Shown here: one piece after another, positions 37,202-40,153 of the stretch | Layout: each line of letters opens with the position of its first letter | How positions within the stretch are numbered: the stretch's first letter is position 1 | Virus record (IMG/VR): IMGVR_UViG_3300021185_003284 | Coordinates: 32,001 to 96,000 of that record | Direction: 5' to 3' (one strand) | Origin: a virus | DNA: 64,000 nucleotides | Position numbers and translations under genes: made by a program | Notes under the pieces: generated by a model | Database searches by the model: none | What the model was told of the DNA's origin: nothing | The model's input: the letters and a program-made list of their open reading frames with translations, nothing else

Positions 37202-37224
37202 ATTAAAAATAACTTGGGGAGGAG

Positions 37225-37287
37225 TTGCCTCCCTGAGTATTTCTTCTTATATTTAAGTATAATTAAAAAGGTAAAATAAAGGTTATG
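37225..37287 (+). promoter_or_regulatory. Early promoter cassette
   Basis: TTG 37225, TATATTTA 37248; near-identical to the 33241 copy. Confidence 0.85.
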
Positions 37288-37473: not shown

Positions 37474-37712
37474 TGGCTAGAGATAAAAAAAGATATTCAG
37501 TACAGATAGATTTGTACATTCATGCAGACAATGATTATATGGCTCGTAAAAAAGCTCATGAGTATGCTGAAGAGATAGATGCTAAGCATGTTAATGCTAG
37601 AGCTAATGTAATAGAGATAGGTGAGCAACCATTTGCTTCACTTTCATATAGAAAACTAGATGATAAATCTAGACCTATCGAGAAAGAAAAAGATGAACCG
37701 CTACCATTTTAG
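37473..37712 (+). CDS. Hypothetical protein
   Basis: Coupled ORF. Confidence 0.7.
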   Translation: MARDKKRYSVQIDLYIHADNDYMARKKAHEYAEEIDAKHVNARANVIEIGEQPFASLSYRKLDDKSRPIEKEKDEPLPF

Positions 37713-37719
37713 TAGCAAC

Positions 37720-37730
37720 GTTCTTTAACA
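37720..37730 (+). promoter_or_regulatory. boxA-like antitermination site
   Basis: GTTCTTTAACA vs E. coli rrn boxA GCTCTTTAACA; directly upstream of the RNA region. Confidence 0.55.
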
Positions 37731-37733
37731 TAT

Positions 37734-38015
37734 TGGAGGAAAGTGTTGGATCTGAAAGATTGATCCGTTAAAGAGAGGCCGACGCGATGAGATGATATCA
37801 AGAGCTCGCTAGAAGTTGAAAGCTTAGTACTGACTACCGCCGGTTATAGAGGGAAAGGAAAAGGAACTAAAGACTGAGGCTCGACATTGGGAGTGTAAAT
37901 TTTGATCACTTTAAAAGGGGAAGAAAATAAGCTGTGTGAAGACAGCGAGGTACCAAGTCCATTCCGGGCGAAACTATTTTCACAGAGAGGATACCTAACA
38001 CCCACCCTAACTCCA
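37734..38015 (+). ncRNA. Candidate ~280-nt structured non-coding RNA of unknown class
   Basis: Higher GC than flanks; end-to-end pairings TGGAG/CTCCA and GTGTTGG/CTAACAC; internal stems GGATC/GATCC, GAAAATA/TATTTTC, GCTGT/ACAGC; between boxA and tRNA. Confidence 0.55.
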
Positions 38016-38021
38016 TCTTAT

Positions 38022-38094
38022 AGCGCTGTAGAGCAGTGGCCAGCTCGTTGGGCTCATAACCCAAAGGTCGGAGGTTCGAATCCTCCCAGCGCAA
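38022..38094 (+). tRNA. tRNA-Met(CAT), initiator type; CCA not encoded
   Basis: Cloverleaf with GCGCTG/CAGCGC acceptor and 1:72 mismatch; anticodon arm TTGGG-CTCATAA-CCCAA with three G-C pairs; GGTTCGAATCC T-arm. Confidence 0.95.
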
Positions 38095-38111
38095 CTAAAT
38101 TAATAAAGGTT

Positions 38112-38550: not shown

Positions 38551-38698
38551 AGCATGGAGATTATGGGCGAGAGCTTTGGGAGAAAAGATAGGTCCAACAA
38601 GTGAAGCAGATAAAATAGCTATACTGAGAACATTAATTATACTCCAGGCAGTAATATGTAATGCTTTGATTGTAGCTAATATTATAAAAAACTGGTAA
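38543..38698 (+). CDS. Small membrane protein (51 aa, not in ORF track)
   Basis: Hand translation MRRAWRLWARALGEKIG...IVANIIKNW*. Confidence 0.65.
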   Translation: MRRAWRLWARALGEKIGPTSEADKIAILRTLIILQAVICNALIVANIIKNW

Positions 38699-38773
38699 AA
38701 TAACTATGTAACTAGTTGCTCGTCTGATATATTATTCATATATTAAGGTATAATATTAAAACAAATAAAGGTT

Positions 38774-39283: not shown

Positions 39284-39293
39284 TAAGCATGGC

Positions 39294-39345
39294 GAGGGGG
39301 TGAGGGGGCGTTTCTCTCTCTCCTCCGAAGGAGCCACGCGCGAAT
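39294..39345 (+). repeat. GC-rich structured repeat, copy 1
   Basis: GAGGGGG-CGTTT-CTCTCTC..CTCC-GAA-GGAG..ACGCGC; second copy at 40103. Confidence 0.75.
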
Positions 39346-39358
39346 TTAAAAAAGTAAT

Positions 39359-40102: not shown

Positions 40103-40153
40103 GAGAGGGGGAGGGCGTTTCTCTCCTCATCGAACGAAGTGAGCACGCGCAAT
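40103..40153 (+). repeat. GC-rich structured repeat, copy 2
   Basis: GGGGAGGG-CGTTT-CTCTCCTC..CGAA.TGAGC-ACGCGC. Confidence 0.75.

Follow-up and report, generated by a model that had tools for sequence, protein, structure and literature searches.

Positions 37734-38015 of the window, the whole 64,000-nucleotide stretch of DNA analysed here, hold a real and intricately folded structured-RNA gene, whose product arranges about 14 helices and a loop-to-strand pseudoknot in two domains under one terminal helix, and whose fold is kept through compensatory substitutions. The family is previously uncatalogued and absent from Rfam. The RNA travels with a boxA-like site ahead of it as a movable module, usually followed by an initiator tRNA. 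The window belongs to a 113-kb IMG/VR contig from an uncultured marine myovirus, for which the nearest cultured phage is Flavobacterium phage vB_FspM_immuto (the baseplate wedge protein is 56% identical).

The original prediction was of a structured non-coding RNA, about 280 nt long and without an assigned class, that a boxA-like site precedes and an initiator tRNA follows, in a stretch richer in GC than its flanks and without a credible open reading frame (ORF). This proposal stands, on the strength of many compensatory changes among homologues and of the lack of any Rfam match. About 310 bases without a credible ORF lie between the end of a 79-aa gene (stop codon at 37712) and the tRNA-Met (38022). 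A conserved reading frame was sought among the RNA homologues and none was found, the longest open frames differing in strand, frame and content and not being kept from one copy to another. The GC content of the stretch reaches 0.43-0.48, as against 0.25-0.35 (about 33%) in the flanks. In turn, the predicted folding energy is no better than that of shuffled sequence in the two copies considered, the minimum free energy (MFE) z-score being +1.0 in the window copy and +1.95 in one homologue. Thermodynamics alone therefore gives the region no support, and the case rests on covariation.

Homologues were sought through the 79-aa protein encoded upstream, which has many relatives; 35 of them were aligned and the alignment was used to retrieve genomic neighbourhoods. 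In these (80 IMG/VR loci and 80 metagenome loci), the RNA was searched for with nhmmer and then with a covariance model, R1. It was found in six of the 160, on marine metagenome contigs and with 61-96% identity, giving a set of five distinct full-length sequences (window included) and two partial ones (Table 1). The 79-aa gene next to the RNA has some 40 more homologues in ENA/Logan contigs. When R1 was run over the whole records of some 85 related IMG/VR entries, including complete genomes of 160-177 kb, the contig of L058, the most divergent copy, was the sole match, and the weak local matches fell in coding sequence; a complete record of 160,410 bp, which appears to be the genome of phage immuto, was found by this search to lack a copy. 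A motif scan of IMG/VR recovered only the L058 contig, and two domain-motif scans of the same database yielded chance matches and that same contig. As for rejected candidates, the 27 IMG/VR matches to two RNase-P-like motifs were all due to chance, as was the single match of a GTDB genome scan, in a Clostridia MAG. Likewise, blastn and tblastn searches against GenBank phages returned no match for the RNA, for its 6-kb surroundings or for the 79-aa neighbour. The family is thus limited to a narrow lineage of uncultured marine myoviruses: it is real but narrow.

Table 1. The RNA gene, its structural elements and its neighbours in the window, followed by the copies found in other contigs (positions of the copies are those of their own contigs).
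Feature	Position	Strand	Remarks
Stem-loop and promoter-like cassette	37212..37263	+	Hairpin 37212-37238, TATAAT 37258-37263
Small hairpin (GCTACC...GGTAGC-type)	37700..37716	+	Over the stop codon of the 79-aa gene
boxA-like element GTTCTTTAACA	37720..37730	+	11/11 match to the BoxA consensus GYTCTTTAANA
Structured non-coding RNA gene	37734..38015	+	282 nt; terminal helix H1 closes both ends
H1, terminal helix	37734-38/38011-15	+	GGAG/CUCC becomes GCAG/CUGC in one homologue
Domain 1	37742..37888	+	Closed by H2
H2	37742-47/37883-88	+	Four different fully paired versions
H3, hairpin	37748-52/37762-66	+	Three or four paired versions; followed by invariant GUUAAA
H7	37777-79/37879-81	+	Little or no covariation
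H5	37780-83/37815-18	+	Three or four paired versions
H4	37784-87/37806-09	+	Three or four paired versions
H4b	37788-90/37798-800	+	Same arm as H5 and H4
H13	37829-32/37841-44	+	Weak; little or no covariation
Domain 2	37889..38007	+	H8a, H9, H8b, H10, H11 and H12
H8a	37889-91/38005-07	+	Invariant
H9, hairpin	37892-95/37907-10	+	Three or four paired versions among five sequences
H8b	37917-19/38001-03	+	Weak; mismatched in 2/5 sequences
H10, hairpin	37931-34/37943-46	+	GCTG/CAGC; three or four paired versions among five sequences
PK1, pseudoknot	37935..37984	+	Whole H10 loop (37935-42, UGUGAAGA) with strand 37977-84 (UUUUCACA)
H11	37948-54/37989-96	+	Three or four paired versions among five sequences
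H12, hairpin	37957-60/37966-69	+	GTCC/GGGC; three or four paired versions among five sequences
Initiator-type tRNA-Met, anticodon CAT	38022..38095	+	ARAGORN and Rfam tRNA, 66.7 bits
Homologue L129	2762-3043		96% identical; followed by tRNA-Met
Homologue L130	2762-3047		83% identical; followed by tRNA-Met
Homologue L132	777-1062		75% identical; followed by tRNA-Met
Homologue L058/L188	L058:1891-2223		61% identical; without tRNA
Homologues L138 and L133			Partial copies, cut by contig ends

Among the helices of domain 1, H2, for instance, is found in four compensated states (AGUGUU/GACAUU, AGUGCA/UGCAUU, AGAGUU/GACUUU and AGAGCU/GGCUUU). The arm formed by H5, H4 and H4b carries two conserved 5-nt bulges, and the centre of the domain is a purine-rich stretch with little or no covariation, to which no pairing was assigned. 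Besides GUUAAA, the blocks GAAGAAA, CGAAA and AGAGAG are invariant and unpaired. In domain 2, the pseudoknot PK1 occurs as UGUGAAGA/UUUUCACA, UGUGAAAA/UUUUCACA, UGUGAUA/UAUCACG and UGUGAUA/UAUCACA, each of them fully paired. PK1 covaries though it is absent from the covariance model, so that the alignment had not been fitted to it.

The covariation was measured in two ways. The first used the alignment A6, which was fitted to the R1 structure; one of its rows is short and spurious, and L058, whose H3 is enlarged by some 35 inserted nt, is out of register in its 5′ part. In A6, 94.9% of cells pair, a value that none of 500 shuffles attained (82.2% in shuffles); when the partners are slid, 32-47% of cells pair. 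In the same alignment both sides have changed in 28 of 67 pairs, against 12.4 in shuffles. Furthermore, in strands curated by hand, whose registers involve some choice, 99.1% of 342 cells pair, compared with 35-43% when slid. The covariation check among homologues thus pointed to a conserved structure, although, with only five distinct full-length sequences to compare, H7, H8a, H8b and H13 show little or no covariation.

Not all of the folding details initially put forward share in this support. Out of four long-range helices proposed from the single sequence, two were wrong, whereas the proposals of a terminal helix and of a pair of hairpins hold in principle. The outer helix H1 is kept, one homologue bearing a compensating change, and the GCTG/CAGC and GTCC/GGGC hairpins (H10 and H12) covary strongly. 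In contrast, the inner helix drawn between 37743-49 and 37995-38001 is unsupported and competes with the better supported H2, and the GAAAATA/TATTTTC pairing (37923-29/37975-81), thought to close a multi-branch domain, gives way in the same manner to PK1. Tested together, the two rejected helices pair in 76.5% of cells versus 73.9% in shuffles, with 73 of 500 shuffles as good.

The boxA-like site announced just before the RNA is indeed present there. The element matches the published BoxA consensus, GYTCTTTAANA (10.1101/091223), at 11 of 11 positions, including the critical C at position 4, this consensus being gamma-proteobacterial and the likely host a flavobacterium. A perfect match is found in six of the seven copies of the RNA, reading GTTCTTTAACA in the window and either GTTCTTTAAAA or GTTCTTTAACA in five homologues; the exception is L133 (GATCTTTGAAT). 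Since chance alone would give one such match in 64 kb, the evidence for the element is its conserved position. L132 and L058 have it despite unrelated sequence upstream, and its spacing to H1 ranges from 6 to 16 nt among the copies (in the window, 3 nt part it from the RNA). Perfect matches in unrelated contexts, together with this variable spacing, therefore assign the boxA-like site to the RNA module, of which it would be a linear signal lying outside the fold.

Some particularities of this stretch in individual relatives are worth recording. L133 carries two boxA-like sites before the RNA, one at 1748-1756 (GTTCTTTAG), where a 95-aa ORF ends, and a degenerate one nearer the RNA, at 1803-1811 (GATCTTTGA). 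In L132, a 58-aa cysteine-rich ORF (CC...CxxC; L132:595-771) is inserted between the 79-aa gene and the RNA, and its stop codon is the TAA within the boxA-like site. The window retains only the last codons of an ORF of this type (AAC GTT CTT TAA), as if the ORF had been deleted.

In the window, 22 nt separate the start of the RNA from the stop of the gene before it, which leaves no room for a promoter of its own. Upstream of that gene, a cassette spanning 37212-37284 combines a terminator-like hairpin with promoter-like hexamers; a second copy lies at 38697-38773 (80% column identity), and more copies occur in related contigs. The order of the repeated intergenic cassette is hairpin, TATAAT and then AAATAAAGGTTATG. 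The RNA unit is therefore flanked by two stem-loop/promoter cassettes, at 37212-37263 and at about 38697-38773, the first of which probably starts the transcription unit holding the RNA, its promoter role being read from the sequence. The L058 module sits directly behind a cassette-like promoter. L129, L130 and L138 share the small hairpin that covers the stop of the 79-aa gene and ends 3 nt short of the boxA-like site; L132, L133 and L058, whose upstream context differs, lack it, and it probably lies outside the RNA module.

Relatives differ in how the 62-aa, 77-aa and 79-aa genes are ordered about the RNA, which fits the plastic early region of a T4-type phage. This reordering looks like the modular shuffling associated with PeSL (promoter-early stem-loop) cassettes of T4-type phages, which the cassette at 37212-37263 resembles and which were reportedly described by Arbiol et al. 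in 2010 as flanking shuffled modules. In both cases repeated stem-loop/promoter cassettes bound the unit and gene order is shuffled, the comparison concerning the setting of the RNA and not the RNA itself. Other elements of the contig (C1) deserve mention: a GC-rich element, GCATGG(A)CGAGGGGGTGAGGGGGCG...CCGAAGGAGCCACGCGCG, has copies in the window at 39284-39358 (the 39294 copy) and at 40103, and a third one at C1:24131-24431, about 7.6 kb before the window start. At C1:24250-24440, the GC-rich element is followed by a stretch free of ORFs that closes with a hairpin and a T-run and may encode a further small RNA.

The tRNA downstream of the RNA is, as foreseen, of the initiator type: A1 does not pair with A72, the bottom of the anticodon stem is made of three consecutive G-C pairs (GGG/CCC), and in the Rfam alignment its first pair is non-standard (A/A) and UUGGG...CCCAA surrounds the CAU. 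As side observations, the A1/A72 mismatch stands against C1/A72 in E. coli tRNA-fMet, and the gene encodes no 3′ CCA. The closing helix of the RNA ends 6 nt before the tRNA in the window, and the tRNA starts 6-14 nt past that helix in four copies (window, L129, L130 and L132). The geometry that would allow tRNA 5′ processing to release the RNA, as first suggested for the window, is hence conserved in these four.

Such proximity raises the question of whether the RNA has a separate life at all, and the strongest competing account is that of a cis-acting leader which would guide the processing, folding or level of the downstream initiator tRNA. An initiator-type tRNA-Met adjoins four of the five copies with a known 3′ side, which argues for this reading. 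However, L058 keeps the whole fold without a tRNA directly downstream or within 2.5 kb on either side, and related phages have the tRNA-Met without the RNA. Moreover, the linker between both genes differs in length and sequence between copies, and the RNA is set apart as a separate unit by a terminal helix of its own. The L058 copy, in particular, implies that the RNA is a module of its own, the tRNA link being frequent but not obligatory, and we regard a leader of this kind as unlikely. The GGUUAU of the RNA is complementary over six bases to the tRNA anticodon arm; this contact was also considered and rejected, being within chance expectation and not kept in L058.

A more ambitious idea, which we put forward as a long shot, is that of a new functional class cooperating with the phage initiator tRNA, either catalytic or binding the ribosome or an initiation factor, and steering initiation or the supply of tRNA-fMet to the phage. 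For an RNA cooperating in this way, the rRNA-style BoxA leader would reflect a need for chaperoned co-transcriptional folding.

Other tRNA-related sequences were encountered in the course of the work. In a related phage contig (L004:3420-3560), a tRNA-like sequence, GTCCCGTAGAGCAGT...GGTTCGAGTCCTGCCGGGA, has about 60 extra bases after the anticodon-arm region; ARAGORN makes no call on it, and an intron or some other disruption of a tRNA may account for it. Apart from the tRNA-Met, the contig that holds the window has a single tRNA, a tRNA-Ala located outside the window (C1:1123-1197) and likewise preceded by about 140 ORF-free, GC-enriched bases (feature C1:981-1197).

The comparison with known RNAs agrees with the early impression that no class could be assigned. 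At the gathering score, Rfam 15 reports only the tRNA in the window, and at E<=10, in three divergent copies, nothing overlaps the RNA consistently. The families without a match to any of these three copies include ROOL, GOLLD, raiA, manA, RNase P, tmRNA, the self-cleaving ribozymes and the riboswitches.

Pseudoknotted structured RNAs of such a size are rare, and they have repeatedly proved to be ribozymes, riboswitches or molecular machines. A new ribozyme, for instance one cutting itself at its 5′ or 3′ end or carrying out some other catalysis, would agree with the compact pseudoknotted core and its four invariant unpaired blocks, and some processing of the 5′ end would be needed wherever BoxA is transcribed. 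Nevertheless, no known self-cleaving class and no RNase P model came up in the E<=10 search, the hammerhead-like and RNase-P-like motifs are short and lack the helices that each would require, and we deem catalysis decidedly improbable. Each of these resemblances was pursued and rejected. RNase P RNA came to mind through GGAGGAAAG near the 5′ end and ACAGAGAG near the 3′ end, added to a length near that of the smallest bacterial forms and to the adjacent tRNA; however, no model matches at E<=10. Nor do the helices backed by covariation include a P4 pairing of the 5′ block (GGAAAG-type) with the 3′ block (ACAGA-type), the 5′ block pairing instead with 37883-88 in H2, and an RNase-P-like pairing of this block with the 3′ region has no covariation support. 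The GAUGAG/CGAAA look-alikes of the hammerhead have an incomplete core and no Rfam match.

Self-assembly into an RNA-only multimer can be considered as well. Multimers of this kind have been reported for ROOL, GOLLD and raiA, with cryo-EM of ROOL and GOLLD (10.1101/2024.12.08.627333). The RNA of the window is, like these two, an ornate phage-borne RNA adjacent to a tRNA. Against such an assembly, it is two to three times smaller than ROOL and GOLLD, Rfam gives no match to these two or to raiA, and no loop palindrome suited to a kissing contact is conserved across the homologues; we judge it very improbable.

Equally little probability falls to a riboswitch or protein-binding leader controlling a downstream protein gene. 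In its favour, the next gene, found past the tRNA in the window and directly after the RNA in L058, belongs in both cases to one small family of 71-77 aa proteins, with weak similarity (33% over 33 residues). In L132 and L133, however, the gene of that family lies upstream of the RNA. Furthermore, the tRNA stands between the RNA and any gene in four copies, and no expression platform, whether a terminator or a sequestered ribosome site, is present, the 3′ end being paired with the 5′ end. Finally, that the RNA should be a functionless spacer or the remnant of a decayed gene, as its ordinary MFE and narrow distribution might hint, is scarcely credible in the face of many two-sided compensatory changes in a fixed register that the slid-partner controls fail to reproduce, of GC enrichment within an AT-rich genome and of invariant unpaired blocks that persist at 61% overall identity.

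Among the RNAs already described, the closest in kind are rnaC and rnaD of T4 (species 1, of 139 nt, and species 2, of 119 nt, located where the T4 tRNA cluster ends), ROOL (about 580 nt) and GOLLD (about 800 nt): all of them, like the 282-nt RNA described here, are phage RNAs beside tRNA genes to which no role has been assigned. The T4 RNAs share with it a T4-type phage, a plastic early region and an adjoining tRNA gene, whereas the window RNA is twice as long, lies upstream and not downstream of the tRNA and has a boxA-like leader. ROOL and GOLLD are likewise elaborately folded, occur in phages or prophages and are often found beside tRNA genes. Homology to rnaC and rnaD was considered and rejected, neither cmsearch nor blastn against GenBank phages giving a sequence or structure match; in the T4 region that encodes them (NC_000866 70908-71171), R1 with the cmsearch filters off scored at most 4.8 bits, with E>1.

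In turn, the BoxA/Nus leader of rRNA operons resembles the module in layout, the 11/11 site of the phage lying a short way before a long untranslated structured RNA and a tRNA; it differs in that here the arrangement is phage-borne and stands before a non-ribosomal RNA. Antitermination by BoxA and Nus factors also occurs at suhB and at CRISPR arrays. The NusB:S10 network has been reported as conserved in Bacteroidota (PMC13753749).

With these elements in hand, we lean on balance towards reading 37734-38015 as the gene of a stable structured non-coding RNA of a new family, transcribed with the help of Nus-type antitermination, processed at its 3′ end through the tRNA and acting in trans. The RNA would be transcribed as an untranslated stretch inside an early transcription unit, or heading one. 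By analogy with the rRNA operons, BoxA in the nascent transcript would recruit the host NusB/S10, which may shield RNA polymerase from Rho-dependent termination over some 380 untranslated bases, and the Nus-type complex could aid co-transcriptional folding. The cut of RNase P at the tRNA 5′ end would then set the 3′ end of the RNA, 6 nt past H1, leaving a short tail, and the terminal helix would protect both ends. More speculatively, once released, the RNA might act in trans in the infected cell, most likely by binding a protein or serving as a decoy; in this it would resemble the stable T4 RNAs rnaC and rnaD.

The immediate impact of these observations is limited by the narrow distribution of the family and by the absence of a cultured host. 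What is new is an RNA family outside Rfam, tied to a phage-encoded initiator tRNA and preceded by a match to the antitermination signal of rRNA operons. Among the phage RNAs linked to tRNAs, a little-understood group that dates back to rnaC and rnaD of T4, it is a well-defined and testable addition. Furthermore, the perfect BoxA match suggests that phages borrow the host machinery for the transcription and folding of rRNA for the benefit of their own stable RNAs.
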